Of a DNA stretch of 47,939 nt, positions 1,093-47,242 are shown piece after piece. This stretch comes from a virus. Taxonomy: Duplodnaviria; Heunggongvirae; Uroviricota; Caudoviricetes. The translations under genes were made by a program, and so were the position numbers. Location of the stretch: the IMG/VR virus record IMGVR_UViG_2802429228_000006. The stretch is one strand, 5' to 3'. The notes under the pieces are model-generated. The model saw only the letters and a program-made list of their open reading frames with translations. It had not been told where the DNA came from and ran no database searches. The number at the start of each line of letters is the position of its first letter. Position 1 is the first letter of the stretch.

Positions 1093-1924
1093 TTATTGTG
1101 ATCAAAAACAATATTTTATTAACATATGGTAAGGTGAGTTATAGATGCTTTTTTAGAGAAATAATTATTTAAAATAATAAGTTAGTGATGGTTATAGGAG
1201 GTGAGTATTGGGTGTGATTTCAAACTTCAAAACAAATGTGTCCTGCGATTTAATACACGATTGAGTTAATTTGAAATAACCTGTTGTAAACAGGTGAGTT
1301 TTAGTTCTTCACCTGTTTGGCAGGGGGGAGAATAATACGTAGTCTCCATACATTATGTAAGTATCCCGCATAATCGTGCCATTCACATTTAGAGACCCTT
1401 TTGCATTTCAGAAGAGCAACGTCCCCCTTGATTAAGGATAGCGTTGCATCGACCCATTGAACTCAGAGCTCATAACAGACATTCATTTTTTATGGCTGAA
1501 AGGCATTCGTGGCTGGTTGGTATATGGAAGCTGTGAACGAAAAGAATGGTGCTTGTTGAGGGGATAGATGAAGCACAGCCAAATTAAGCAGATGAAAAAA
1601 TAAAAAAGCCCGCATAAGCGGACTTCTATGTCACTAAAGAGCTGCGGCTCCTTTGCGTATCCTTTTTTGTCTCCTCACCGTCTGGTCGGTGTCTTACTGA
1701 GACTGCTAACTTCCTGTTTTTGTTGGTGTTGTTCTTACACCGTCTAATCATGATTGGCTGGCGGAGTTTGAATAAATATTATATTTATTTGATTTTTAAC
1801 GATTTTGTTTAATTCAGTTTTTGTGCGTATACCTAATTGTATACCAATGGCTGTAAGTTAATGTGAAATTAAAGCGCATTTTTACTTGGATTGATGCTAT
1901 ATCGTACAGGAAAAAAATTTTTTT

Positions 1925-2210
1925 CGAAAGAACTGTTCACACTGTTCACCTTTCTGTTTTCTCCTTTTCTTTCAGTATGATAGATGGTGAATAATGGGTG
2001 AAGGGTGAACATTCGATTCTTCACCTCCGGCATTCTGCCGATGTGACTTGTGCAGGGGATTAATCCTCCGCACTGAAATCACACAGGGAGAAAAAAGTTT
2101 TTTTTGATTTGATTGTTCACACTGTTCACCTTTCGTTTTTCTCTTTTAATTTCAGTGTGATAACGGGTGAATATACGGTGAAGGGTGAACAGTGGATTGT
2201 TCACCTGCGG
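1925..2210. repeat. crr-like iteron cluster: two ~180-bp direct repeat units, each with TGTTCACC/GGTGAACAG octamers in both orientations
   Basis: Near-identical blocks ...ttgttcacactgttcacctttc...ggtgaagggtgaaca... at about 1925-2030 and 2105-2210, immediately downstream of alpha. This is where P4 crr lies. Confidence 0.6.
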
Positions 2211-2264
2211 GGGATATCGGGATAAAAAAAGACCGGCAGATGCCGGTCAGGTGGGTCATGAGGG

Positions 2265-4598
2265 TCAGGTTGTTGCAGGGTCGTCACATTTTGGCAGCCA
2301 GTCGCCGTAGCTTTCCTCTTTCAGCGTCAGGTTGGTCTGTATCCCCTGTTTGGTATGGCGCTTCTCGTAATTCAGTCCGTATTCCTTCAGCATCACCGGC
2401 AGCCCCAGCCCGAACATTTTCAGACTGAGTACATTCCGGTAGCCGTTTGCCTCCATGTAGGCCAGATAGGCGTGATAGAGGTATTTACGGTAATTACGCG
2501 GGATGATACTGGCGTTCCCCATATACATGCCGCTGGTCTGCGGCAGGGTTTCCAGATAGCCGATAAAATCAAACGTCGGGTCGGCATCCCGTTTGATGTT
2601 CAGTGCCTCGTCTGAGTTCTGCTGGGACTGAAGCAGTGACCGGGCGAGCATCGGGTCGCTGAATTTCTGCATCAGGTGACGCACGATGACCGCCAGCTCG
2701 CGGGTGATTTTGTCCTTAAGCTGCGGGTCGCGCTCCTGCGGGGCTATCTGTTCCGGGAAGTGAATAATCACCCGCCGGCGTGACACGCCGCCGCTGCGGT
2801 CGGTGAAGCGCATCGGGTTATTGTTCACGGCCAGAATCACCGCCGGGATATGCGTGGAGTACGCATCCCGGTATTTCGGGTCCACGGACACCGCATCGCC
2901 GCCGGTGATGGCCTTGAGTCCGGCACCGTCGCCGCTCCATTTTTCCTGGTCCGGCAGGCGTATCAGTGAGAAGCCAGTTAACGCGGCACGTTCACGCGGG
3001 GATTCCAGCGTCTCGATGGTGGCCGACGTGGCGTTATCCTCCCCGGCCAGCAGGGTGGCGATTTCGGCCATGATACTTTTGCCGCTGCCGCCGGGACCGG
3101 TCACCTCCAGAAAGAGCTGCCAGTCGTAGCGGTTTGCCAGCACCATAAACAGTGCGGCCAGAATCACGTCGCGTTTTTCCGCACGGCCACCGGCGGCACG
3201 GTCAAGCCAGCGCCAGAACGCGGGGGCGTGGTTTTCCAGCGTTTCCCCTTCCACCGGCGGGGTGAAATCCACATCGCACAGGGTGCGCATCCAGTGTGAC
3301 GGACTGTGCGGGTGGAACGTGCCGTTCTGCGTGTCGAGCACGCCGTTACGAAAGCCAATCAGGCGGCGGGAGGGGGCTTCCTGCTGCGGAATAATCAGCT
3401 TCAGGGTGTCCACCACGGAGGCCACCTTCCCGGAGGAGAACGGCGCGCGCAGACGCTGAAACAGCCCGGCCACATCCCGGGCAAAGTCCTGTGGCGGCAG
3501 CACCTTCCAGACACCATTTTCATAGCGGGACAGAAGCTGGCCGTTGGCATCGACCGCGAGCGCCTCGCCGTAATGCTCATAGATACGCATGGCCTTTTCG
3601 CTGGTACTCATGGCGGAAAACTCCGCTTCGCTCATGGTGTCGAACGGGCTTTCAGCCGGTGGCCGGATGGCATCATAAATGGCCTTACGGGTGGCTTCCC
3701 CGCCGTACTGCGTGAAGGCATCATTCCAGTCACCGAAGACCGGCGGCAGGGCAACAACACCTTCACACGCATCTGCGGCTGCGGCGGCTTTTTTCTGGCC
3801 GTCACCGCTGAGGTCACGGTCTGCGGCAAGGACAATCTGACAGGCCGGATGCTTCTGCCGGGCAAGGCTGGCCAGAGAAAGGAGGTTCACGGAAGAAAGC
3901 GCCACCATCACCGTTTCACCGGTCAGGTGATGCACGGTAAGTGCGGTCGCGTATCCCTCCGCTATCCACAGACGTTTTCCGGCCTGATTCTGTCCTTCAA
4001 GGGTGTGACAGGTGCCCCTGACCTGTCCGCCTTTCAGGGTGCGCTTACGGCCGTCAGCACTGATTAACTGAAGGTTAACCAGTTCGCCGCTGTCGTCATA
4101 CAGTGGCACCACAAGGTCACCGGCACGCCAGCTCACGCCACCGGCTCTGTGTGTGCCGGTCAGCATCCGGCATTCCCGGCCGGGAAAGCCCTTGCGGGTC
4201 AGGTAGGCGTTACCGGTTCCGGGACGGGTTTTCGCCATCAGGGTTTGTGCCAGTGCGGCTGCGTTCTTCCGGGCAGCGTCTGTTTCAGCACCGGCGGCAG
4301 CCGTCACTGCCGGGTCAGCCGGGGGCAGGCTGCCGGTCACGGCAGCCACCTTTGCGGCCGCGTCGGACGGGGAAACACCAAACACCTTTTCAACCAGTTT
4401 CAGGCCGTCACCGGCACCACACTGATTGCAGTACCAGGTGCCGCGCCCCTCCCTGTCATCAAAACGGAAGCGGTCACTCCCGCCACAGACCGGACAGGGC
4501 TGATGACGGTTTTTCAGCACCTGAATCCCCAGCGCCGGGAGAATACGCGGCCAGTGGCCGAGCGCATGGCTGACGGTGGCGGTTACGTTCATTTTCAT
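2265..4598 (-). CDS. alpha: P4-type alpha protein (primase/helicase replication protein)
   Basis: 777-aa ORF with an N-terminal CxxC...CxxC zinc-binding primase-like region and P4 alpha-like sequence throughout; AAGGAG RBS upstream of the ATG. Confidence 0.9.
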   Translation of the reverse strand: MKMNVTATVSHALGHWPRILPALGIQVLKNRHQPCPVCGGSDRFRFDDREGRGTWYCNQCGAGDGLKLVEKVFGVSPSDAAAKVAAVTGSLPPADPAVTAAAGAETDAARKNAAALAQTLMAKTRPGTGNAYLTRKGFPGRECRMLTGTHRAGGVSWRAGDLVVPLYDDSGELVNLQLISADGRKRTLKGGQVRGTCHTLEGQNQAGKRLWIAEGYATALTVHHLTGETVMVALSSVNLLSLASLARQKHPACQIVLAADRDLSGDGQKKAAAAADACEGVVALPPVFGDWNDAFTQYGGEATRKAIYDAIRPPAESPFDTMSEAEFSAMSTSEKAMRIYEHYGEALAVDANGQLLSRYENGVWKVLPPQDFARDVAGLFQRLRAPFSSGKVASVVDTLKLIIPQQEAPSRRLIGFRNGVLDTQNGTFHPHSPSHWMRTLCDVDFTPPVEGETLENHAPAFWRWLDRAAGGRAEKRDVILAALFMVLANRYDWQLFLEVTGPGGSGKSIMAEIATLLAGEDNATSATIETLESPRERAALTGFSLIRLPDQEKWSGDGAGLKAITGGDAVSVDPKYRDAYSTHIPAVILAVNNNPMRFTDRSGGVSRRRVIIHFPEQIAPQERDPQLKDKITRELAVIVRHLMQKFSDPMLARSLLQSQQNSDEALNIKRDADPTFDFIGYLETLPQTSGMYMGNASIIPRNYRKYLYHAYLAYMEANGYRNVLSLKMFGLGLPVMLKEYGLNYEKRHTKQGIQTNLTLKEESYGDWLPKCDDPATT

Positions 4599-4612
4599 GG
4601 TGTTGTTCTCCT

Positions 4613-4933
4613 TCAGTGCAGTACCGGCGCTTTTATGTGACGGGCACAGAGTTCATCCATCACAACCAGCCCGAGAAAGGACAGCGACGGCGCGGCCTTC
4701 AGGGGGCCGGATTCCATTAAATCTTCCAGCAGGGCACAGGCTATCTGACGCCCTTTTTCCTCACCGTGCTGGCGCAGATAAAAGCCTTCCAGCTCAGCGG
4801 CGATGGCCGCCTCCAGTGATTCAAGGGTGAGATGCGGGTAGCGGTGCTGACGTTCGCACACGGTCAGCCAGGCACAGGCGACAGCGCGACGGTAAAGGGC
4901 AGCGCGTAAGACGGGCGGTAAGGGTGTTTTCAT
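4613..4933 (-). CDS. Hypothetical P4-family early-operon protein (106 aa)
   Basis: ORF with a GGGAGG RBS, co-oriented and tightly packed upstream of alpha. Confidence 0.55.
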
Positions 4934-5068
4934 TTGCTTTCCTCCCTGTGACAGATGACAGCATTCCGTGCCGGTTGCATTAACTGATAAGGCATATCTG
5001 CGTCTCCTGAAGACGTGCGTATCCCTGCGCGAATACGCACATTTAATTTTTCGGGGGTCGTTTTTTAA

Positions 5069-5524
5069 TTACAGATAATTGCGGTAACTGTTATCCGGGG
5101 TGGTTTCCGGGTCAGGCTCCGTGCGGGGGATTTCCCGCCATTCCCGCGCCACCGGTGCCGCCCGGCTGACCGGAACAGGGGCCTGCGGGTAAATATCCAG
5201 ATATTTCTCCCGCCATTTCTGTAATTCCGGGTCTCCGGCCATTTCTTTCAGTACCGCATGCCGGTTTACGGGGCTGCGTTTAAACAGGTCAGGACGGTCA
5301 CAGGTAAATTCCCGCAGAAAACGCCCCAGCGGGATGTCTGTGGTGCGCCCGTCTGCGAGGATACGCACAAGGATACTGAATTTACGGCGGTACGGGTTCC
5401 AGACAATGTCCGGGCAGCGGTACGGCATTTCCCACGGAATACCGTCTTCCAGAATGCCGACCACGGCCACATCGGGAAAACCGGCAGAACGGTAAATCTC
5501 ACCGGGCTGGGGAAAATCAAACAT
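5069..5524 (-). CDS. P4 orf151-like protein (151 aa)
   Basis: Exactly 151 codons in the position P4 orf151 occupies upstream of alpha; GGGGAG RBS. Confidence 0.55.
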   Translation of the reverse strand: MFDFPQPGEIYRSAGFPDVAVVGILEDGIPWEMPYRCPDIVWNPYRRKFSILVRILADGRTTDIPLGRFLREFTCDRPDLFKRSPVNRHAVLKEMAGDPELQKWREKYLDIYPQAPVPVSRAAPVAREWREIPRTEPDPETTPDNSYRNYL

Positions 5525-5804
5525 GCGTCTTGTCTCCCCGGTCTTTCTGCTGGGCGAGAAAATCGCGGCACAGGCCTTTGGCTTTCAGCTCATTCAGCAC
5601 AAAATCAATATCTTCATTCAGGTAGCTGAAAATATGCGGAATGTAGAGCTGATGCAGGCCGGAGAGTTCACGGTGAATCAAATCACCCCCAACAAACTGG
5701 GATACGGCGCTGGCGCGGTTGAGCTTATGGTAAGCCTCAATGCTGAGGTGTTCACGGGCGTCATGACGCGCTGAGACGGTCTGAGGGGCTTTTTTATTAC
5801 GCAC
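5517..5804 (-). CDS. Putative derepression (epsilon-like) protein, about 95 aa, GTG start
   Basis: The C-terminal part of ORF-track entry 5517..6050 has coding character. GGAGG followed by GTG defines a short gene; the long upstream extension is implausible. Confidence 0.4.
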
Positions 5805-5994
5805 GGGACACCTCCACCACCGGCAGACGGGCAGCAAGGGAGAGCACATAGTCACGGACAAGGGAACGGCGGGCGCTGCGTTCATCACCGGCGACGGTGC
5901 GAAGCATGCAGATACGGGGATGACGGTCTGCGCGACGGACAGCCGCAAACACAAAGACAAATTCAGGGTGTGAGGGGGTAAGGGTTGTAGCCAT
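5797..5994 (-). CDS. Small early ORF (65 aa), possible Icd/Kil-like host cell-division inhibitor
   Basis: Internal ATG of ORF 5797..6396 preceded by AAGGAGG; begins [16 protein letters not shown]. Sits immediately downstream of the seqC-like element. Confidence 0.4.
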
Positions 5995-6002
5995 GATGGC
6001 AG

Positions 6003-6255
6003 CCTCCTTGAAGTAACAGTTACAGCTACCACTGGAGTTCCTACGCTCATGGGTGGTAGCCCGGACGGGGGTAGGAATACCGGCCTTCAAGGAAACCGGC
6101 CAGCCCGAAGGCTGCCCCGCCCGGACCACCATTATCTGACAGAGGCTACGGTTTAAAAACCACAGCCAGAAAAACAGGTGTGCCGAAGCAACGACGTAAA
6201 AAAAGACGCATGGCGCGTCATATGTCGCCTTGAAGTAACTCGGGTTCCTACGCCC
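6003..6255 (-). promoter_or_regulatory. P4-type RNA immunity region: two similar sequences flanking a central complementary element (candidate CI-like RNA around 6070..6095)
   Basis: CCTTGAAGTAAC...GTTCCTACGC occurs at about 6005-6045 and 6228-6255. The central stretch ggtaggaataccggccttcaagg contains the reverse complements of both half-motifs (GTAGGAA, CTTCAAGG). Confidence 0.4.
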
Positions 6256-6347
6256 GGCTGCCGATTTTGCGACAGCGGAAAAACTATATCCGCAAATGCC
6301 GGAAAAAGGCAAGCCAGAAAAAGGGACTTTTTGCAGAACAGGCATCA

Positions 6348-6614
6348 TCATGCGTCGTACCCCCGTTTGCGTCCGGCAATGCGCCCGGCCATCCATGCGG
6401 TGACTTCAGAGTGCAGCCAGGCCACATTTTTACCGCCAAGACTCACCTGTGGCGGAAATTCCCCCTTACGGATGAGTTCATAGATGGTCGAGCGTGACAG
6501 GCCGCACAGGTGCATCACTTCCGGCAGACGTAAAAAACGCTCCTGCGTGATGTCCGGCAGCGGCATCAGTGGCGTCACAGGGGCGGGAGACGGGGAAGAA
6601 AAAACAGCTTGCAT
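6348..6614 (-). CDS. AlpA-family phage transcriptional regulator (short HTH protein)
   Basis: RLPEV...[17 protein letters not shown]...W...SEV..W matches the AlpA-type HTH signature. The true start may be an internal Met. Confidence 0.65.
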
Positions 6615-6892
6615 CGGGCTACCTCGTTAATGTCCATACAGCACCGGATAAGTCCGTCCGGCGTCGGGTAGCGCTTTATTTTGTGAATATTTTCAGCAGA
6701 CGCAACAGGGGGGATTTGTTCCGGTAGCCTTACAATGGCTGTGTGTTTTTTATCCATCTGGACTGGAAGGGTCTCAAAGGGTTCTGAAGGACCTGGAATT
6801 TTTTATAGTGAAATACAAATTGTTTTTTCTTATTTATTTCAGTGAATTAATAAAAATAAAAAGTAATAAACAGCACAAAAAGTCCATGAGCG

Positions 6893-6997
6893 GGTGAACA
6901 GTGGTGAACAGACGGTGAACAGTCATCGCTGCGATTGTTCACCCTTTAACTTACTGTATTGCTTATCTTTTTTCTTATGGTGAACAGAGGTGAACAG
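6893..6997. repeat. ori-like iteron cluster: five direct GGTGAACAG copies plus one inverted copy
   Basis: gggtgaacagtggtgaacagacggtgaacag...attgttcaccc...ggtgaacagaggtgaacag. Same octamer as the crr cluster and about 4.9 kb from it, as for P4 ori versus crr. Confidence 0.6.
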
Positions 6998-7076
6998 TAA
7001 AATATAAAAAAAACAAACAGTAAGCCGGTTTTTCCTGCGACCTTTTCCTGGCTTGCCGGTCTGAGGATGAGTCTCC

Positions 7077-7094
7077 TGTGTCAGGGCTGGCACA
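7077..7094 (+). promoter_or_regulatory. Delta/Ogr-type activator site (TGT-N12-ACA) of a P_sid-like late promoter
   Basis: tgtgtcagggctggcaca lies about 75-90 bp upstream of the sid ATG. Confidence 0.5.
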
Positions 7095-7166
7095 TCTGCA
7101 ATGCGTCGTGTTGTTGTCCGGTGTACGTCACAATTTTCTTAACCTGAAGTGACGAGGAGCCGGAAA

Positions 7167-7901
7167 ATGTCTGACAACACCATCCCTGAATATCTGCAAC
7201 CCGCGCTGGCACAACTGGAAAAGGCCAGAGCCGCCCATCTTGAGAACGCCCGCCTGATGGATGAGACCGTCACGGCCATTGAACGGGCAGAGCAGGAAAA
7301 AAATGCGCTGGCGCAGGCCGACGGAAACGACGCTGACGACTGGCGCACGGCCTTTCGTGCAGCCGGTGGTGTCCTGAGCGACGAGCTGAAACAGCGCCAC
7401 ATTGAGCGCGTGGCACGCCGGGAGCTGGTACAGGAATATGACAATCTGGCCGTGGTGCTGAATTTTGAACGTGAACGCCTGAAAGGGGCGTGTGACAGCA
7501 CGGCCACCGCCTACCGGAAGGCACATCATCACCTTCTGAGTCTGTATGCAGAGAATGAGCTGGAACACGCCCTGAATGAAACCTGTGAGGCGCTTGTCCG
7601 GGCAATGCATCTGAGCATCCTGGTACAGGAAAATCCGCTCGCCAACACCACCGGCCATCAGGGCTACGTCGCACCCGATAAAGCTGTCATGCAGCAGGTG
7701 AAATCATCGCTGGAACAGAAAATAAAACAGATGCAAATCAGCCTCACCGGCGAGCCGGTTCTCCGGCTGACCGGACTGTCAGCGGCAACACTCCCGCACA
7801 TGGATTATGAGGTGGCAGGCACACCGGCACAGCGCAAGGTGTGGCAGGACAAAATAGACCAGCAGGGAGCAGAGCTTAAGGCCAGAGGACTGCTGTCATG
7901 A
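7167..7901 (+). CDS. sid: Sid, P4 capsid size-determination (external scaffold) protein
   Basis: 244-aa product from MSDNTIPEYL with a GAGGAG RBS. First gene of a sid-delta-psu operon with P4 sizes. Confidence 0.8.
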   Translation: MSDNTIPEYLQPALAQLEKARAAHLENARLMDETVTAIERAEQEKNALAQADGNDADDWRTAFRAAGGVLSDELKQRHIERVARRELVQEYDNLAVVLNFERERLKGACDSTATAYRKAHHHLLSLYAENELEHALNETCEALVRAMHLSILVQENPLANTTGHQGYVAPDKAVMQQVKSSLEQKIKQMQISLTGEPVLRLTGLSAATLPHMDYEVAGTPAQRKVWQDKIDQQGAELKARGLLS

Positions 7902-8398
7902 TTTACTGCCCGTCGTGTGGACATGTTGCTCACACCCGTCGCGCACATTTCATGGACGATGGCACCAAGATAATGATTGCACAGTGCCGGAATATTTATT
8001 GCTCTGCGACATTTGAAGCGAGTGAAAGCTTTTTCTCTGACTGTAAAGATTCAGGAATGGAATACATTTCAGGCAAACAGAGATACCGCGATTCACTGAC
8101 GTCAGCCTCCGGCAGCATGAAACGCCCGAAAAGAATGCTTGTTACCGGATATTGTTGTCGGAGATGTAAAGGCCTTGCACTGTCAAGAACATCGCGGCGT
8201 CTGTCTCAGGAAGTCACCGAGCGTTTTTATGTGTGCACGGATCCGGGCTGTGGTCTGGTGTTTAAAACGCTTCAGACCATCAACCGCTTCATTGTCCGCC
8301 CGGTCACGCCGGACGAACTGGCAGAAAGCCTGCATGAAAAACAGGAACTGCCGCCAGTACGCTTAAAAACACAATCATATTCGCTGCGTCTGGAATGA
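7898..8398 (+). CDS. delta: Delta, late-gene transcriptional activator (tandem Ogr-like zinc fingers)
   Basis: 166 aa with two CxxC...C..C Ogr-type modules (MIYCPSCGHVAHTRRAH... and ...CCRRCKGLALSRTS...CTDPGCGLVF); start overlaps the sid stop. Confidence 0.85.
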   Translation: MIYCPSCGHVAHTRRAHFMDDGTKIMIAQCRNIYCSATFEASESFFSDCKDSGMEYISGKQRYRDSLTSASGSMKRPKRMLVTGYCCRRCKGLALSRTSRRLSQEVTERFYVCTDPGCGLVFKTLQTINRFIVRPVTPDELAESLHEKQELPPVRLKTQSYSLRLE

Positions 8399-8471
8399 GG
8401 GCTGCCGGTTAATACCGGCCGTCGCCGCACACCGTATTTTTATTCTTCAGCATGATGAGAAAGAGATAACG

Positions 8472-9044
8472 ATGGAAAGCACAGCCTTACAGCAGGCCTT
8501 TGACACCTGTCAGAATAACAAAGCAGCATGGCTGCAACGCAAAAATGAGCTGGCTGCGGCCGAACAGGAATATCTGCGGCTTCTGTCCGGGGAAGGCAGA
8601 AACGTCAGTCGCCTGGACGAATTACGCAATATTATCGAAGTCAGAAAATGGCAGGTGAATCAGGCCGCCGGTCGTTATATTCGTTCGCATGAAGCCGTTC
8701 AGCACATCAGCATCCGCGACCGGCTGAATGATTTTATGCAGCAGCACGGCACAGCACTGGCGGCGGCACTGGCACCGGAGCTGATGGGCTACAGTGAGCT
8801 GACGGCCATTGCCCGAAACTGTGCCATACAGCGTGCCACAGATGCCCTGCGTGAAGCCCTTCTGTCCTGGCTTGCGAAGGGGGAAAAAATTAATTATTCC
8901 GCACAGGATAGCGACATTTTAACGGCCATCGGATTCAGGCCTGACGCGGCTTCGGTGGATGACAGCCGTGAAAAATTCACTCCTGCGCAGAACATGATTT
9001 TTTCGCGTAAAAGTGCGCAACTGGCATCACATCAGTCTGTGTAA
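8472..9044 (+). CDS. psu: Psu, polarity suppression protein (Rho antagonist / capsid decoration)
   Basis: 190 aa; the MESTALQQAFDTCQNNKAAWLQRKNELAAAEQEYLRL N-terminus is recognisable as P4 Psu. Confidence 0.9.
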   Translation: MESTALQQAFDTCQNNKAAWLQRKNELAAAEQEYLRLLSGEGRNVSRLDELRNIIEVRKWQVNQAAGRYIRSHEAVQHISIRDRLNDFMQQHGTALAAALAPELMGYSELTAIARNCAIQRATDALREALLSWLAKGEKINYSAQDSDILTAIGFRPDAASVDDSREKFTPAQNMIFSRKSAQLASHQSV

Positions 9045-9080
9045 AACTCCCCGAAAATCCGCCCGTTTTTACTGAAAAAA

Positions 9081-9119
9081 GCCATGCATCGATAAGGTGC
9101 ATGGCTTTGCATGCGTTTT
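9081..9119 (+). terminator. Hairpin plus T-rich tract downstream of psu
   Basis: gccatgcatcgataaggtgcatggc followed by tttgcatgcgtttt. Confidence 0.45.
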
Positions 9120-9208
9120 CCTGCCTCATTTTCTGCAAACCACGCCATTCCCGGCGCGGTCTGAGCGTGTCAGTGCAACTGCATTAAAACCGCCCCGCAA
9201 AGCGGGCG

Positions 9209-9227
9209 GGCGAGGCGGGGAAAGCAC
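9209..9227. other. cos site, P2/P4 type (19-nt cohesive-end sequence)
   Basis: ggcgaggcggggaaagcac matches the P2/P4 cohesive end as I recall it, in the P4 position just past psu. Confidence 0.7.
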
Positions 9228-9315
9228 TGCGCGCGCATTGAATTAATTTATTAATAATTAAACTAGAATATGGAGTGGAGAAGTAAGAAACTTATAACAC
9301 TAAGGATAAGAGGAT

Positions 9316-11403
9316 ATGGGCAAAATGCAAAAAACTGAGGTCGAAGTATTTTCTGAGTTGGAGTCACTGTGTACATCTCATGGTTTTATTCATTGTTTAG
9401 CATTATTAAGCTGCATAAATAATATTACTATCTATGAAGACAAACTTAATTTTAAAGATGTGCAACATCTATACGAAAAAGAACGATTGATAAGAACCGA
9501 GATTTCTACGGTTGCAGGATTGTTGTTAAAGTCTGAAATTAATGTAAATTATCCCGGCGAAGAAGCACTGTTGAAATTATACGAAGATGTGAATGCATCT
9601 TTGAATATTTTACATAGTGCTATGCTTTTGACTGAGAAGAATGGCGATTACAACAATGCGATTATAAAAGAGAGTATATTTTATGCTGCTGAATCTGCTT
9701 ATGACTTTCAATATTTAGATATGGCGGAGGAAAAATACTCCTTAGATAATTCTTGGTTTTTAGAGAATATGGGGTTTACATGCATCGATATGGTGTCAGT
9801 AGGCCGGTGTATAGAGTCTATAATAGGGAGGCAAATTAATGATTTTTTAAATGGTGGTCAAGGGATTTTTAATGAGTGGCTATTAAATGCTTACGAGTTG
9901 TCAATTAATGAAATAGTTACTGAGACAGGTATTTCTTATGTGAAGGTAAGAACTATCATTGATTTGTTTTCGTCAGGTGGAAATTCAAATGAAACCTTTC
10001 AGTCTGTGAGTGACTTTAATATCTTTAATGCTAGACCCATAATCCGCACTGGAGATAGGTATTATTGTTTTTCAGCCTATTCATTGGCTCAGTCAATATA
10101 TGAAACACCATTTTTTTGGATGAATAATGACAAAAAATATAGACCTATATCTGCACAACATAGAGGACAATTTGTAGAAGATTATGTATATAGAAAAATG
10201 ACATCGATTTTTGGAATTGAGAATGTATTCAAAAATGTATATATAGTGAACTCTAATAATGAGACGCTAGGTGAAATAGATGTACTGGTATCTTTTTCTG
10301 ATTCGGTAATAATTTATCAGGCAAAATCTAAGAAGTTAACTATTGAAGCTAGAAAGGGAAATGGGAATGCTATACAAAAAGATTTTCAAGGTGCTATACA
10401 AGATGCTTATGATCAGGGGGTTTCTTGTGCTCAATTCATCGTATCTGGCGCAAGCCTAACTGATCAAAATTTCAACCGATTGAATCTCAACTCTTCAGTC
10501 TCTAGATGTTATATTGTTCCAATTATATCTGAGCATTATCCGTCTTTGAGTTTTCAGGTTCGTCAGTATTTGAATGTTAAAATAACAAATGAAATTTACC
10601 CGCCATTTATAATGGATGTTTTCCTTTTAGATGTTCTAACAGAGTTTTTAAATACGCCGCTATATTTTTTATCTTACATTGATCGTCGTTCGAAATATAA
10701 CATGAGAGTATTTTCTTCTCATGAATTGACAGTCTTTTCTTTGCATCTAAAACAGAATCTATGGATTGACAATGAATGTGATATGTTTATGTTGCATGAT
10801 GATATATGTGCTGATCTCGATATTGCGATGTTAGTCCGCAGGAAGGGGATCTCTGGTAAACATACTCCAAGTGGTATTCTAACACTCCATCAGGATGGCT
10901 TTATTAGAAAAATAATTAACTCATTGGAATCGGAAAATCATAAATTGGCGATGGATTTAGGTTTGCTTTTGCTTTCTTTGGATAGTGATGCTATTGAAAA
11001 CATCAATAAAATAGCTAATAAAACGATATTTTTATCTTCACTTGATAAGAAACACCATGATTTTTCAACTGTCATTGGGGATACGGGTATTACAGTTCAT
11101 TGTAATTACTATAAGAAAGATGTCGCGGGAAAAAAGTTGTATGAACATTGCATAAAAAGAAAATATATAACTAAATGTAAAAAATGGATTGGTATACATG
11201 TTAGACCAATAACATATGATATAAATTATGGAATTATGTTGGATTTTGAATGGGAATATTCTTCTGATATTGAAAGTATTATCACTCCTACTCCATTACA
11301 AAATACTTTGGTTAATGTTAAGGGAAATATGACTCAAGCAAAACGACCGGGTAGAAATGAACCATGTTTTTGTGGTAGCGGTAAAAAATGTTGTTTACGT
11401 TAA
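9316..11403 (+). CDS. Cargo protein (695 aa): putative PD-(D/E)xK/NERD-like nuclease with C-terminal SEC-C-type Cys motif; candidate anti-phage factor
   Basis: AT-rich ORF between cos and int. GEIDVLVSFSDSVIIYQAKSK fits a D..E.K nuclease core; the C-terminus CFCGSGKKCC fits a SEC-C metal-binding motif; no P-loop seen. Confidence 0.75.
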   Translation: MGKMQKTEVEVFSELESLCTSHGFIHCLALLSCINNITIYEDKLNFKDVQHLYEKERLIRTEISTVAGLLLKSEINVNYPGEEALLKLYEDVNASLNILHSAMLLTEKNGDYNNAIIKESIFYAAESAYDFQYLDMAEEKYSLDNSWFLENMGFTCIDMVSVGRCIESIIGRQINDFLNGGQGIFNEWLLNAYELSINEIVTETGISYVKVRTIIDLFSSGGNSNETFQSVSDFNIFNARPIIRTGDRYYCFSAYSLAQSIYETPFFWMNNDKKYRPISAQHRGQFVEDYVYRKMTSIFGIENVFKNVYIVNSNNETLGEIDVLVSFSDSVIIYQAKSKKLTIEARKGNGNAIQKDFQGAIQDAYDQGVSCAQFIVSGASLTDQNFNRLNLNSSVSRCYIVPIISEHYPSLSFQVRQYLNVKITNEIYPPFIMDVFLLDVLTEFLNTPLYFLSYIDRRSKYNMRVFSSHELTVFSLHLKQNLWIDNECDMFMLHDDICADLDIAMLVRRKGISGKHTPSGILTLHQDGFIRKIINSLESENHKLAMDLGLLLLSLDSDAIENINKIANKTIFLSSLDKKHHDFSTVIGDTGITVHCNYYKKDVAGKKLYEHCIKRKYITKCKKWIGIHVRPITYDINYGIMLDFEWEYSSDIESIITPTPLQNTLVNVKGNMTQAKRPGRNEPCFCGSGKKCCLR

Positions 11404-11410
11404 GGACAAT

Positions 11411-11429
11411 GGCGCGTTAAAAACGCGCC
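11411..11429. terminator. Bidirectional terminator between the cargo gene and int
   Basis: Perfect palindrome ggcgcgttaaaaacgcgcc flanked by T-runs. Confidence 0.5.
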
Positions 11430-11430
11430 T

Positions 11431-12624
11431 TTAGTTATTTTTTTTTACTTTGTTTCCCCACCATTCCATGAGTTCAATTCGTTGCTCTAAGTATGTAGAT
11501 CTATTGTATGCTCTCCGAACTTCATTTTTATCACTGTGAGCTAAAGCCGCTTCAATAACATCTGCATTGAAACCAGCTTCATTCATTGCAGTGCTTGCAA
11601 TAGAGCGAAGGCCATGAGCAACTAGTTTTCCGCCAAAACCAATGCGTTTTAAAGCTGCATTAGCAGTTTGGCTATTCATTGGCTGTTTAGGGTCATTTCT
11701 ACTTGGAAAAATATGTTCACGATGGGCACTAATAGGCTTCATTACTTCCAAAATATCTAAAGCCTGACGTGATAAAGGAACAATGTGTTCACGTTTGGCT
11801 TTCATCCGTTCAGGGGGAATAGTCCAGAGTTTTGTATCAAGATCGATCTCTGCCCAACAAGCACCAGAGGCTTCAGAAGGGCGTACAAGCGTCAAGAGTT
11901 GCCATTCAATGAGACAGCGAGTCGGAACAGATAGGTTTGACATAGCTAAAGAACGCATCAGCTTCGGCAATTCTTCTGGCCGCAATGTTGGCATGTTTTG
12001 CTTTTTTGGCTTCTCAAAGGCCATCCCAACCCCAGATGCTGGATTGGCATCAATCAGACCAGTGTTTACAGCGTAAATCATTATCTCGTTAATTCGCTGT
12101 ATCAGTCGACGTACAGTTTCAAGAGCCCCACGAGCTTTGATTGGCTCAAGAGCTTCGACTAGCGTCCGGGCTTTGATTTGCTGGACGGGAATCTCTCCAA
12201 TGGCTGGGAATATGTCTTTTTCCAGCGAACGCCATATATCTTTAGCGTAATCAGGGGAAACGCTTTTGCTTTTTATCTGAAACCAGTTGGTCGCAACAGT
12301 CGAAAAAATACTGTCTAGAGCTATCTGTTGTTGTTCTTCGATAAATTCAGCTTGAACTTGTGGGTCTATACCATTAGCCAACAAAGCAAGGTAATCCGCT
12401 CTTAACCGTCGAGCATCAGCAAGTGAAAGAGCGGGGAAAGCACCTATCCCCATCATTGTTCTTTTTTTTGTAGCTGGTCGTTGATAGCGAAATCGCCAAA
12501 GTTTCTTACCGCTTGTTTTCACTATCAGAAAGAGGCCTTCGCCATCATGCAACGTCAGATCCTTTTCTAATGCTTTAGCGCGCAGAACTTCTGTATTGGT
12601 TAGGGGGCGTGTTGTTCTTGCCAC
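11431..12624 (-). CDS. int: P4-type tyrosine integrase (IntA-like)
   Basis: 397-aa product with a P4/CP4-57 integrase-like sequence and a C-terminal catalytic region (HGLR..., ...AHSD...RAY). Adjacent to the att repeat. Confidence 0.9.
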   Translation of the reverse strand: MARTTRPLTNTEVLRAKALEKDLTLHDGEGLFLIVKTSGKKLWRFRYQRPATKKRTMMGIGAFPALSLADARRLRADYLALLANGIDPQVQAEFIEEQQQIALDSIFSTVATNWFQIKSKSVSPDYAKDIWRSLEKDIFPAIGEIPVQQIKARTLVEALEPIKARGALETVRRLIQRINEIMIYAVNTGLIDANPASGVGMAFEKPKKQNMPTLRPEELPKLMRSLAMSNLSVPTRCLIEWQLLTLVRPSEASGACWAEIDLDTKLWTIPPERMKAKREHIVPLSRQALDILEVMKPISAHREHIFPSRNDPKQPMNSQTANAALKRIGFGGKLVAHGLRSIASTAMNEAGFNADVIEAALAHSDKNEVRRAYNRSTYLEQRIELMEWWGNKVKKNN

Positions 12625-12645
12625 TTTGGCCGCTCCTTCATGAAT

Positions 12646-12697
12646 TGGTATACGCGTTTAGGCATATATCCTATCGTATACCTAAACGTATACCAAT
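12646..12697. promoter_or_regulatory. GTATACC box cluster between int and att (candidate integrase arm sites)
   Basis: ttggtatacg...cgtatacctaaacgtataccaat includes a 10-bp inverted repeat (ttggtatacg / cgtataccaa). The same box pair recurs at 1826..1848 at the other end of the element. Confidence 0.35.
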
Positions 12698-12737
12698 AAT
12701 CACTGGATTTAGCTGGATATCCTCGGACAACAGTAGA

Positions 12738-12773
12738 CACAAAAAAGCCCGCAGAGCTTGTGTCATGCGGGCT
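12738..12773 (-). terminator. Rho-independent terminator (minus strand) downstream of the ssrA-end copy
   Basis: Stem agcccgca/tgcgggct with a T6 run on the minus strand. Confidence 0.45.
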
Positions 12774-12808
12774 TTCAGGATTTCTCCGGACGTATCCGGA
12801 AGAGCAAG

Positions 12809-12853
12809 TGGTGGAGCTGGCGGGAGTTGAACCCGCGTCCGAAATTCCTACAT
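12809..12853 (-). repeat. 45-bp direct repeat of the ssrA 3' end (att core copy)
   Basis: tggtggagctggcgggagttgaacccgcgtccgaaattcctacat is identical to 46879..46923, the 3' end of intact ssrA, then diverges. Confidence 0.85.
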
Positions 12854-12969: not shown

Positions 12970-14193
12970 TTATTTTAAATATTCATACTTCATCATTTGA
13001 TGAATAAGGAGTTCAACTTTTCTAAAAGTGGTATTTTCATAATGTTCAACAAGGGATTCATCAAAGTCTTCAATCCATCCTTTTGCGGGATTATAGGTCG
13101 AAAAATTAAAATTATTTTTGTATAGATAGGGGGTGGCTTCTAGTGTACTAAACACAGTCCAGGAAACAGGGTTTGTAACTCTAAATATTTTTTTTAAAAC
13201 AGGACAGTGGGTATCATTGGTTTCAACTATGTTTTCTATTTTTGGGGGGATAATTACATTAATCCCAATATCGCTATCTTTTTGGTTTAATATCTTTGTT
13301 GATCGATACGATATCCCTGATATATTTTTGTTTCTGTCACTACTAATCCATTGCATTAATAGGTTTGGTATTATGTATTCTTTATTAAAACTTGCGTTTT
13401 CATTATCTTTTGTATAGTTACATGCAAGGACTAAAGGCCATGCAATCAACTTTGAAATTTTATCATTAATTTGATCCATGAAATTATCATTATTTAGATC
13501 GTAATCATCATCTGAACCTTGTTCGAATGAATACCAAAGATCTCCCGGTTTTGTACGAAGTGCAGATGTTAAATTGTACCCAAGATCTAAAATTCTTATA
13601 TTTGAATTTTCTTTATCGGATATGAAGGAAGATATGTAAAGTTTATCAAAGTCAGGTTTTCCCATTTCTTGCCAACATACAAATATTGATGTTCCAAGAT
13701 ATAAACATGGAAGACCGGATACAGAAAATCTTTGTGCGCTAACTAAATGTCTATTTTTAAATGGTATATGAAATAATTCTTCTCTTTGTTTTAGGATGCA
13801 CTCACTTTTCCTTACGCGAAATAAAGGGGTGTGTGGGTTGCATAATTTAGTTAGAGGAACAGTCATCTTATAAAGATGAGTATGCATTGATGACTTGGTA
13901 ATTGCCAAATCGAATTTTTTATAAGCTTCTTTAACATTTCCTATTAAAAATAGCTTAAGAGTTTCTATTATTTTATCAGATAAATATATTATTGATTTTG
14001 TGCGAATCTTTACTTGTTTAATTATCTCGTTGTCAGGATATTTATTTCTAATGGAGTCAATTAATTCTAAATAGCACTCGACTCTCTTAGAAAAGTCAGA
14101 AATTAGTTTTCCCTCGGCAATGAATGGGGGTTGCAATAGTTCATGTTTTTTTAGTTCTTCCGATATCTGTTCTAATTCGATAATGTTGCGCAT
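12970..14193 (-). CDS. RES-domain protein (407 aa), candidate NAD-targeting toxin / abortive-infection effector
   Basis: AT-rich ORF between att and int. LFRVR...QRFSVSGLPCLYLGTSIFVCWQE matches the RES signature (R...GRWN..G.P.LY......E). No adjacent partner gene. Confidence 0.6.
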   Translation of the reverse strand: MRNIIELEQISEELKKHELLQPPFIAEGKLISDFSKRVECYLELIDSIRNKYPDNEIIKQVKIRTKSIIYLSDKIIETLKLFLIGNVKEAYKKFDLAITKSSMHTHLYKMTVPLTKLCNPHTPLFRVRKSECILKQREELFHIPFKNRHLVSAQRFSVSGLPCLYLGTSIFVCWQEMGKPDFDKLYISSFISDKENSNIRILDLGYNLTSALRTKPGDLWYSFEQGSDDDYDLNNDNFMDQINDKISKLIAWPLVLACNYTKDNENASFNKEYIIPNLLMQWISSDRNKNISGISYRSTKILNQKDSDIGINVIIPPKIENIVETNDTHCPVLKKIFRVTNPVSWTVFSTLEATPYLYKNNFNFSTYNPAKGWIEDFDESLVEHYENTTFRKVELLIHQMMKYEYLK

Positions 14194-14197
14194 GTGC

Positions 14198-15217
14198 TTA
14201 ATCCATCAAGGTTGCTAATGGGTTTTTAGTTACTGCATCTTCAAGATGATCTGGGGAAAAATGAGCGTAAATCATCGTCATTTTTATATCGGCATGTCCA
14301 AGAATATCGCGCAGTACCAGTATATTTCCACCGTTCATCATAAAATGACTGGCAAATGTATGGCGCAGAACATGGGTACATTGGCCTTCTGGTAGTTCTA
14401 AACCGGCTCGCTTTACTGCACGCTCAAAGGCTTTTCTGCATGGGGTGAATAACTTCCCCCTATTCTTAGGCAGTTCTTCATATAAATCCTTAGAAATAGG
14501 CACAGTTCGGTTTTTCTTGCCTTTGGTCTTGGTATAAGTGATACGGTATTTTGATACCTGATGACTCTGCAGGTTTTCGGCTTCGCTCCAGCGTGCGCCG
14601 GTGGCCAGGCATATTTTTGCAATCAAAAGCAGGCTGGAGCTTTGAGAATCGGCGCAGGCATCCAGCAGACGTTTAATTTCTTCCGGGGTCAGGAACGCCA
14701 ATTCACTCTCAGCAATTTTAAATGTTGGCAGCCCAGCAAGCGGGTTGGGGGCTGACCAGTGGCCCAGCTTTTTCAGTGTACCAAAAACAGATGATAGATT
14801 GCGCTGTTCAAGGTTTACCGTGCGGGGCTTAACGGGCGACATAAACGTGCCATCTTCATTTCGTACTTCACCTTTTAACCGTGCTTCGCGGTATTTCGTA
14901 AAGTCACCGGCTGTCAGTTCTGAAGCGATGGGATCGCCTAGACCATTACAGATAATTCTAAGTTTCGCTATGAGGCGCTTGGGGTCTGCGAGTGTTTGAC
15001 CATACAGGGAATACCACTGCTCAATTAATTCTGATAGGTGTCGCCGATCTTCCTTTTCCCCCAGCCATGGTTTTTTGTTCACTTCTTCCATTGTGAAGCT
15101 TTCAAAAGCAATGGCTTCGCCTTTCGTAGCAAATTGCTTACGCACGCGCTTGCCATTGCGTCCATTGGGATAGCACTCGCACAACCATTTACCGTTTGGC
15201 TGTTTTCTGACAGTCAT
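14198..15217 (-). CDS. int: P2/186-family tyrosine integrase
   Basis: 339 aa with a C-terminal catalytic region (ARWSEA..., HVLRHTFAS, ...MTMIYAH); position next to the repressor. Confidence 0.9.
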   Translation of the reverse strand: MTVRKQPNGKWLCECYPNGRNGKRVRKQFATKGEAIAFESFTMEEVNKKPWLGEKEDRRHLSELIEQWYSLYGQTLADPKRLIAKLRIICNGLGDPIASELTAGDFTKYREARLKGEVRNEDGTFMSPVKPRTVNLEQRNLSSVFGTLKKLGHWSAPNPLAGLPTFKIAESELAFLTPEEIKRLLDACADSQSSSLLLIAKICLATGARWSEAENLQSHQVSKYRITYTKTKGKKNRTVPISKDLYEELPKNRGKLFTPCRKAFERAVKRAGLELPEGQCTHVLRHTFASHFMMNGGNILVLRDILGHADIKMTMIYAHFSPDHLEDAVTKNPLATLMD

Positions 15218-31990: not shown

Positions 31991-32441
31991 ACTGCAGAAG
32001 GTGGACGACTGGCTGAGTGCCTTGCTGGCGAATCTGGAACCAGCCTCGAGAAGCCGCATGATGCGCCAGCTGGCGCAGGAACTTCGCCGGACACAGCAGC
32101 AGAATATCAGGATGCAGCGCAACCCTGACGGCAGCAGCTATGAACCGCGACGGGTAACAGCACGCAGTAAAAAAGGCCGTATCAAACGTCAGATGTTTGC
32201 AAAGCTGCGCACCACAAAATACCTGAAAACTGCCGCCAGCGCCGACTCTGCCAGCGTGCAGTTTGAAGGTAAGGTACAGCGCATTGCCCGTGTTCACCAT
32301 TACGGTCTGCGTGATCGCGTCAGTCGCAAAGGACCGGACGTACGGTATGCAGAGCGGCGTTTGTTGGGTATTAACAATGATATTGAGAACAACGTTAAGA
32401 ATGTTTTTTATCAATGGTTAATTAATAACAATAAGCCGTAA
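31983..32441 (+). CDS. S: Tail completion / virion morphogenesis protein (P2 S homolog); last ~20 codons AT-rich
   Basis: 152-aa gpS-like protein; composition of the 3' end shifts abruptly to AT-rich. Confidence 0.8.
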   Translation: MAELQKVDDWLSALLANLEPASRSRMMRQLAQELRRTQQQNIRMQRNPDGSSYEPRRVTARSKKGRIKRQMFAKLRTTKYLKTAASADSASVQFEGKVQRIARVHHYGLRDRVSRKGPDVRYAERRLLGINNDIENNVKNVFYQWLINNNKP

Positions 32442-46878: not shown

Positions 46879-47242
46879 TGGTGGAGCTGGCGGGAGTTGA
46901 ACCCGCGTCCGAAATTCCTACATCCTCGGTACTACATGCTTAGTCAGTCTTTACATTCGCTTGCCAGCTGCGGACAGACACGCCACTAACAAACTAGCCT
47001 GATTAAGTTTTAACGCTTCAACCCCAGGCAAGGCTTCCACGCGATCTCTTTTGGGTTTGACCTCTCTTGATCCCCGTCCTAAGAGCGGAGGCTAGGGAGA
47101 GAGGGCTCTAAGCAGGTTATTAAGCTGCTAAAGCGTAGTTTTCGTCGTTTGCGACTATTTTTTGCGGCTTTTTACGAGGCCAACCGCCCCTCGGCATGCA
47201 CCTTGGGTTTCGCAAATCCCGTCGAATCCAGAATCAGCCCCA
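46879..47242 (-). ncRNA. ssrA: tmRNA (SsrA, 10Sa RNA)
   Basis: The reverse complement reads GGGGCTGATTCTGGATTCGACGGGATTTGCG...GCAAACGACGAAAACTACGCTTTAGCAGCT...GGTTCAACTCCCGCCAGCTCCACCA, including the ANDENYALAA tag-coding region. Ends may be off by 1 nt. Confidence 0.95.

Follow-up and report, generated by a model that had tools for sequence, protein, structure and literature searches.

A predicted crr of phage P4 type in a satellite prophage at ssrA

In phage P4, the octamers of ori and of crr are both bound by the alpha protein, which forms a loop of the intervening DNA. Of the two sites, ori is the one at which replication starts, and a single crr unit is enough. A further protein, Cnr, raises the affinity of alpha for both ori and crr and thereby restrains copy number. 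This picture of crr and Cnr is said to derive jointly from work by Flensburg and Calendar in 1987, Ziegelin et al. in 1993 and 1997, and Briani et al. in 2001. Comparable arrangements are known from plasmids, where iteron clusters situated outside the origin, such as incA of P1 and incC of F, act as binding sites for the initiator and become paired with the origin.

In the database records of P4, crr is annotated as required in cis for replication, and the feature table places it at 4291-4590. The two repeats of the site occupy 4291-4410 and 4471-4590 and contain ten type-1 repeats. The site has been described as essential to P4 DNA replication (bioRxiv 10.64898/2026.03.30.715334). The alpha protein binds the origin repeats through its winged-helix domain, and unwinding and priming follow (PMC4234260).

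The window treated here is a stretch of viral DNA of 47,939 bp. It contains a P4-type satellite with a different integrase, which shares the ssrA site with a P2-like prophage arranged in tandem. Positions 1911-2210 can be assigned with high confidence, on their sequence, to the crr of this satellite prophage, that is, a non-coding cluster of ten predicted sites for the element's own initiator, alpha. The feature as such is already known and has been described since the 1980s; the locus presents a textbook P4 crr beside a different integration module.

Architecture of the repeat module

A repeat search returned a single family of direct repeats. Its two copies, 121 nt long (1910-2030 and 2090-2210), share 81% identity and start 180 nt apart. 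Set out in the way of P4 crr, the module consists of two 120-bp repeats and a 60-bp spacer:

1911-2210, no strand: crr as a whole, non-coding; equivalent to 4291-4590 of P4 (X51522), ~94% identity.
1911-2030, plus strand: crr direct repeat 1, 120 bp, opening with an A7T7 tract; octamers at 1934(+) TGTTCACA, 1943(+) TGTTCACC, 1986(-) TATTCACC, 2004(-) TGTTCACC and 2018(+) TCTTCACC, equivalent to the P4 "ori type 1 repeat" features at 4314, 4323, 4366, 4384 and 4398.
2031-2090, no strand: crr spacer, 60 bp, non-repeated; its sequence and length vary among related elements.
2091-2210, plus strand: crr direct repeat 2, 120 bp; octamers at 2114(+) TGTTCACA, 2123(+) TGTTCACC, 2166(-) TATTCACC, 2184(-) TGTTCACC and 2198(+) TGTTCACC, equivalent to the P4 "ori type 1 repeat" features at 4494, 4503, 4546, 4564 and 4578.

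The original prediction had described two near-identical units of ~180 bp within 1925-2210, each with octamers in direct and inverted orientation. The duplication and its 180-bp period are borne out. The unit itself, however, is 120 bp followed by a 60-bp spacer and not ~180 bp, because 2031-2090 and 2211-2270 are unrelated, and copies that share 81% identity are not near-identical. The position was also correct, save that the P4 annotation sets the true start at 1911, 14 bp further to the left, which takes in the conserved A/T tract. As for the octamers, ten of them (TGTTCACC with at most one mismatch) lie within 272 bp, five per repeat and on both strands as predicted, and their orientation (+ + - - +) and spacing (9, 43, 18 and 14 nt) are alike in the two units.

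Exact copies of TGTTCACC number 12 on both strands of the 47,939-bp window. Dinucleotide-preserving shuffles (n = 100) gave an expectation of 1.46 ± 1.22, which amounts to a ~8-fold excess in the window; the largest count in any shuffle was 5, and 0 of the 100 reached 12. Five of the exact copies are found at 1943-2205 and six at 6893-6996, with one stray at 32291. When up to one mismatch is allowed, the densest 300-bp windows after crr are those of ori, with six octamers, and everywhere else the count is three or fewer. A comparable density elsewhere had been named beforehand as the outcome that would speak against the module, and it is absent. Chance clustering of the octamers is ruled out by the shuffles together with this low density in the rest of the window.

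Two other roles for the module found no support. No RNA gene was matched by Rfam in 1900-2220 at E ≤ 0.01. A promoter or terminator function was likewise rejected, as the module contains nothing promoter-like and the only elements of this kind on its flanks are the terminator of alpha (t-alpha) and the native ssrA terminator.

The description of the module as crr-like proved apt. When 1880-2290 was compared by blastn with 50,697 phage records, only three records matched, all of phage P4. Identity to the annotated P4 crr (X51522, NC_001609 and X05623) was 93.7-93.9% over 371-380 bp (E ~1e-164), and the match spanned 92% of the query. A constant offset of 2380 converts the P4 annotation of crr into window 1911-2210 and brings all ten octamers into register. 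In both elements, then, a pair of 120-bp direct repeats, 60 bp apart, holds five type-1 octamers per repeat, at equal positions and in equal orientations; the site follows shortly after the alpha terminator, in the interval from alpha to att, with an ori that has six of these octamers ~5 kb away. The two versions differ by ~20 substitutions, 7 of which fall in the spacer. In a base-by-base alignment, every substitution lies outside the octamers, and all ten of these are unchanged. No sequence evidence against the identification as crr was found. Each repeat resembles the corresponding P4 repeat far more closely than it resembles its neighbor in the window, and the duplication is therefore older than the split from P4.

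The satellite around crr

The similarity to P4 extends well beyond the module. Window 1911-6133 is collinear with P4 4291-8504 at 97.7% identity, and window 6192-9208 with P4 8608-11624 at 96.8% identity. The main P4-type parts of the element are the following:

2231-2248, minus strand: t-alpha, Rho-independent terminator of alpha, between the alpha stop and crr; from a terminator scan, with the P4 annotation at 4604-4628.
2265-4598, minus strand: alpha, 777 aa; primase, SF3 helicase and C-terminal winged-helix origin-binding protein.
4613-4933, minus strand: cnr (ORF106), negative regulator of P4 replication; 106/106 residues identical to P4 ORF106; Pfam DUF5375.
6893-6996, no strand: ori type-1 iteron array, six exact TGTTCACC at 6893(-), 6903(-), 6914(-), 6936(+), 6979(-) and 6989(-); spacing as in P4 9310-9413.
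9209-9227, plus strand: cos cohesive-end sequence GGCGAGGCGGGGAAAGCAC, 19 nt; identical to the P4 right-end/left-end junction.

The alpha gene is full length, and its product is identical to P4 alpha at 769 of 776 positions (99%). Residues 671-770 match the origin-binding winged-helix domain of P4 (PDB 1KA8, E = 1e-63) and have no substitutions relative to P4. Judged from this sequence, alpha is the protein expected to bind the crr octamers. Full-length ORFs are also present for sid, delta and psu. Between t-alpha and the alpha stop, a 9-bp insertion relative to P4 (GGGTCATGA, 2252-2260) nearly duplicates the local GGGTCAGG.

The distance between crr and ori, predicted at ~4.9 kb, comes to 4950 bp when counted from 1943 to 6893. 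The two clusters share the same initiator-binding octamers, with more of them in crr (ten versus six), and an A/T tract opens each crr unit, so that the module could in principle be a second origin of replication and not an auxiliary cis site. This is very improbable. The P4 records put rep_origin at the other cluster and call this one a "cis required region" only, and crr has nothing equivalent to the long AT-rich run beside the octamers of ori.

Two local departures from P4 were observed in this part of the element. One is at 6760-6799, in an ori region that is otherwise ~97% identical to that of P4. The three 10-bp "ori type 2 repeats" of P4 (CCACTTAAAG TCATTTAAAG CCACTTAAAG) are replaced there by another 10-bp periodic set (GGACTGGAAG GGTCTCAAAG GGTTCTGAAG GACCTGGAAT), with the flanks and all type-1 octamers conserved. 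From the sequence, the swap looks like an exchange of specificity for some binder. A regular-expression search for this type-2 region among other loci matched P4 and this window only. The second departure is the sole break in P4 collinearity, at 6134-6191, where 58 bp replace P4 8505-8607 in the immunity region. Rfam matches in the window outside crr comprise the P4 CI (C4) RNA, isrK, a tmRNA and a tmRNA fragment. The P4 CI (C4 antisense) RNA, at 6049-6136 (-), and isrK plus the c4-a1b1 target, at 6199-6289 (-), flank the break in the immunity region.

The ends of the satellite and its integration functions are represented by four features:

1754-1775, no strand: degenerate remnant of the ssrA 3' end, TTGGCTGGCGGAGTTTGAA; crr-proximal end of the satellite.
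1826-1848, plus strand: GTATACC repeat pair; recurs at 12675-12697, beside int, with agreement at 21/23 positions in a local alignment.
11431-12624, minus strand: tyrosine integrase of the satellite, not the int of P4; Pfam Phage_integrase, Phage_int_M and Arm-DNA-bind_3.
12809-12853, minus strand: copy of the last 45 nt of ssrA, 100% identical to 46879-46923; partial Rfam tmRNA match.

From the ssrA 3' copies at 1754-1775 and 12809-12853, it follows that the satellite spans ~1773-12831, or ~11.1 kb (11.06 kb), as against 11.6 kb for P4. The junction on the crr side is a degenerate remnant of ~20 nt that was recognized only by way of an island-free E. coli locus, in which 1596-1761 aligns just downstream of ssrA and overlaps the last 6 nt of that gene. 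When the window's own ssrA was used as a BLAST query, only 12809-12853 was matched, and no second copy of the ssrA 3' end was returned at the crr-side end. The copy at 12809-12853 serves both as the int-proximal end of the satellite and as one att repeat of the neighboring P2-like prophage. The true ssrA is at 46879-47241.

As anticipated in the original prediction, the module thus lies between the alpha stop at 2265 and the end of the element, with the ssrA remnant (~1754-1775) only ~140 bp to the left of crr. Such proximity might suggest that the repeats belong to the attachment site, as arm-type integrase or excisionase sites. Yet P4, which has another integrase and another att, is homologous from exactly the first base of crr onward. 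To the left of that base, P4 has a leuX-type attP in place of the ssrA-type attachment region seen here. Hundreds of E. coli elements likewise match from window 1907-1912. In addition, the crr octamer recurs at ori and not beside int, and a separate sequence, the GTATACC pair, is common to both ends of the element and fits arm sites. The pair probably represents the arm-type sites of the integrase, judging by its sequence and placement, and is distinct from crr. Given the break in homology, the separate GTATACC repeats and the octamer at ori, a role of the module as part of att was ruled out and deserves practically no credence.

Past cos, no homology to P4 was found; a 695-aa ORF and then the tyrosine integrase occupy this part of the element. 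The ORF (9316-11403, +) is located in the cargo hotspot between cos and the integrase and has no Pfam or PHROG match. A weak, sub-threshold PADLOC match to PDC-S12 (E = 0.0023) is found at its C-terminal end, and the only feature reported by NCBIfam is a SEC-C/SWIM-type metal-binding motif near the C terminus, at residues 664-693. In E. coli EC21GDE043, which has this element between glaH and ssrA at 96.8% identity, the same slot is filled by a SIR2 protein and an ATPase. The 695-aa ORF is a candidate for an uncharacterized defense gene.

The same ssrA site is also occupied, in tandem with the satellite, by a complete-looking P2-like prophage that extends from 12853 to 46879 between exact repeats of 45 bp (12809-12853 and 46879-46923). 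It shares ~96% identity with Escherichia phage Cartapus over 76% of a 24.2-kb query (12800-37000). It is adjacent to the satellite and a possible helper. Between its att repeat and its integrase (14198-15217) is a 407-aa ORF (12970-14193, -) in a moron-type position. This ORF has no Pfam, PADLOC or NCBIfam match and a strong match to phrog_7835, a family of unknown function. On the other side of the satellite, glaH/csiD (1-1083, -) shares no more than 93.6-94.5% identity with E. coli, and among 5426 E. coli genomes none matches 1139-1471 in full. A non-coli Escherichia, or else a close relative, is the probable host.

Since many P4-like prophages are cryptic, and this one differs from P4 in the 58-bp immunity stretch (6134-6191) and in the type-2 repeats of ori, the module might be regarded as a decayed, non-functional relic in a defective prophage. 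The state of the element makes this improbable. All substitutions in crr avoid the octamers; alpha, cnr, the ten crr and six ori octamers, sid, delta, psu, cos and the integrase are full length or intact; and at 11.06 kb the element is near the 11.6 kb of P4. Since crr, ori, alpha and cnr are all kept, as are cos and an integrase that looks functional, the element is likely to be mobile rather than a relic. That the satellite is still replication-competent, as first proposed, is a reasonable reading of its sequence.

Distribution and conservation of crr

The module is widespread in E. coli. Of 5426 complete E. coli genomes, 1487 are matched by window 1700-2300, which takes in the module with sequence on either side; in a minority of these, the match is to the ssrA flank only. 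The module itself is present in roughly a quarter of the complete genomes. Most of the matches start at query positions 208-213, corresponding to window 1907-1912 and hence to the left edge of crr. This edge is therefore the joint between a conserved replication module and exchangeable integration modules.

Outside E. coli, a double-unit crr with conserved octamers is found in at least eight other genera. For a comparison by alignment column, 80 loci that code for relatives of alpha supplied 14 crr regions of the double-unit form, all from other genera (Citrobacter, Enterobacter, Klebsiella, Raoultella, Edwardsiella, Atlantibacter and others), and these were aligned with the window. Identity to the window across the 14 elements was as follows:

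Octamer columns: 94%.
Other repeat columns: 68%.
Spacer columns: 35%.
Left flank columns: 35%.
t-alpha terminator columns: 86%.

The difference in conservation between octamer and non-octamer columns was significant in a permutation test (p < 1e-4), and the A/T tract that opens each crr unit is also conserved across genera. Conservation of the octamers in this manner is the signature of purifying selection on what are predicted to be protein-binding sites. Other P4-like satellites do not all have the full two-unit form seen here, as many possess one 120-bp unit beside alpha and some possess none.

Four short contigs among these loci (L004, L005, L006 and L040) have crr together with alpha at 98-100% identity and are binned as Clostridiales, Ferruginibacter, "bacterium" and Ruminococcus MAGs. 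They are almost certainly mis-binned enterobacterial or P4-derived DNA.

How crr is distributed along the divergence of alpha is one mildly new point. In the 80 loci, a crr-type cluster was scored when it lay within 450 bp of the alpha stop. Such a cluster, in the form of one or two units, accompanies alpha in 29 of the 39 loci with 78-86% alpha identity, and in 3 further loci it is 0.8-2.3 kb from alpha, as if cargo had been inserted between the two. At 57-74% alpha identity, a crr-type cluster beside alpha was found in 1 of 31 loci, and an ori-like array of the same octamer is kept upstream in 17 of 30. A tentative interpretation, somewhat doubtful at present, is that crr is an add-on limited to the near relatives of P4 and not a universal part of P4-type replicons. 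If the absences are real, then in distant P4-like satellites an ori of this kind fires without crr, and crr would be an enhancer or copy-control site instead of a core requirement. Alternatively, the absences could reflect relocation or divergence of the site.

Proposed action of crr and comparison with known systems

For the present satellite, binding by alpha, looping, the requirement in cis and present-day competence are all inferred from work on P4. Following excision, the satellite would form a circle of ~11.1 kb. The C-terminal winged-helix domain of alpha would then bind its octamer both at crr and at ori (6893-6996), and the two complexes would touch by looping out the intervening DNA, which measures 4.9 kb along one arc and ~6.2 kb along the other. 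This contact would be needed in cis for ori to fire, after which alpha would unwind the DNA and prime it, and replication would proceed from ori in both directions. Cnr, which is coded next to alpha, would tighten the grip of alpha on ori and crr, such that copy number in the plasmid state is limited.

The significance of these observations is small beyond annotation; the site is found in about a quarter of E. coli genomes. What the locus does document is a satellite in which all cis and trans parts of the P4 replicon (crr, ori, alpha and cnr) are retained, side by side at ssrA with a P2-like prophage that is possibly its helper.

Beyond P4 itself, the nearest parallels are incA of P1 and incC of F. 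The likeness consists of an array of initiator-binding repeats that is distant from the origin and acts in cis by initiator-mediated pairing. There are two differences. The plasmid clusters exert negative control by handcuffing and are dispensable for initiation, whereas P4 crr is described as required. Moreover, the initiator of the P1 and F systems is a Rep-type protein, whereas that of the satellite is a primase-helicase.
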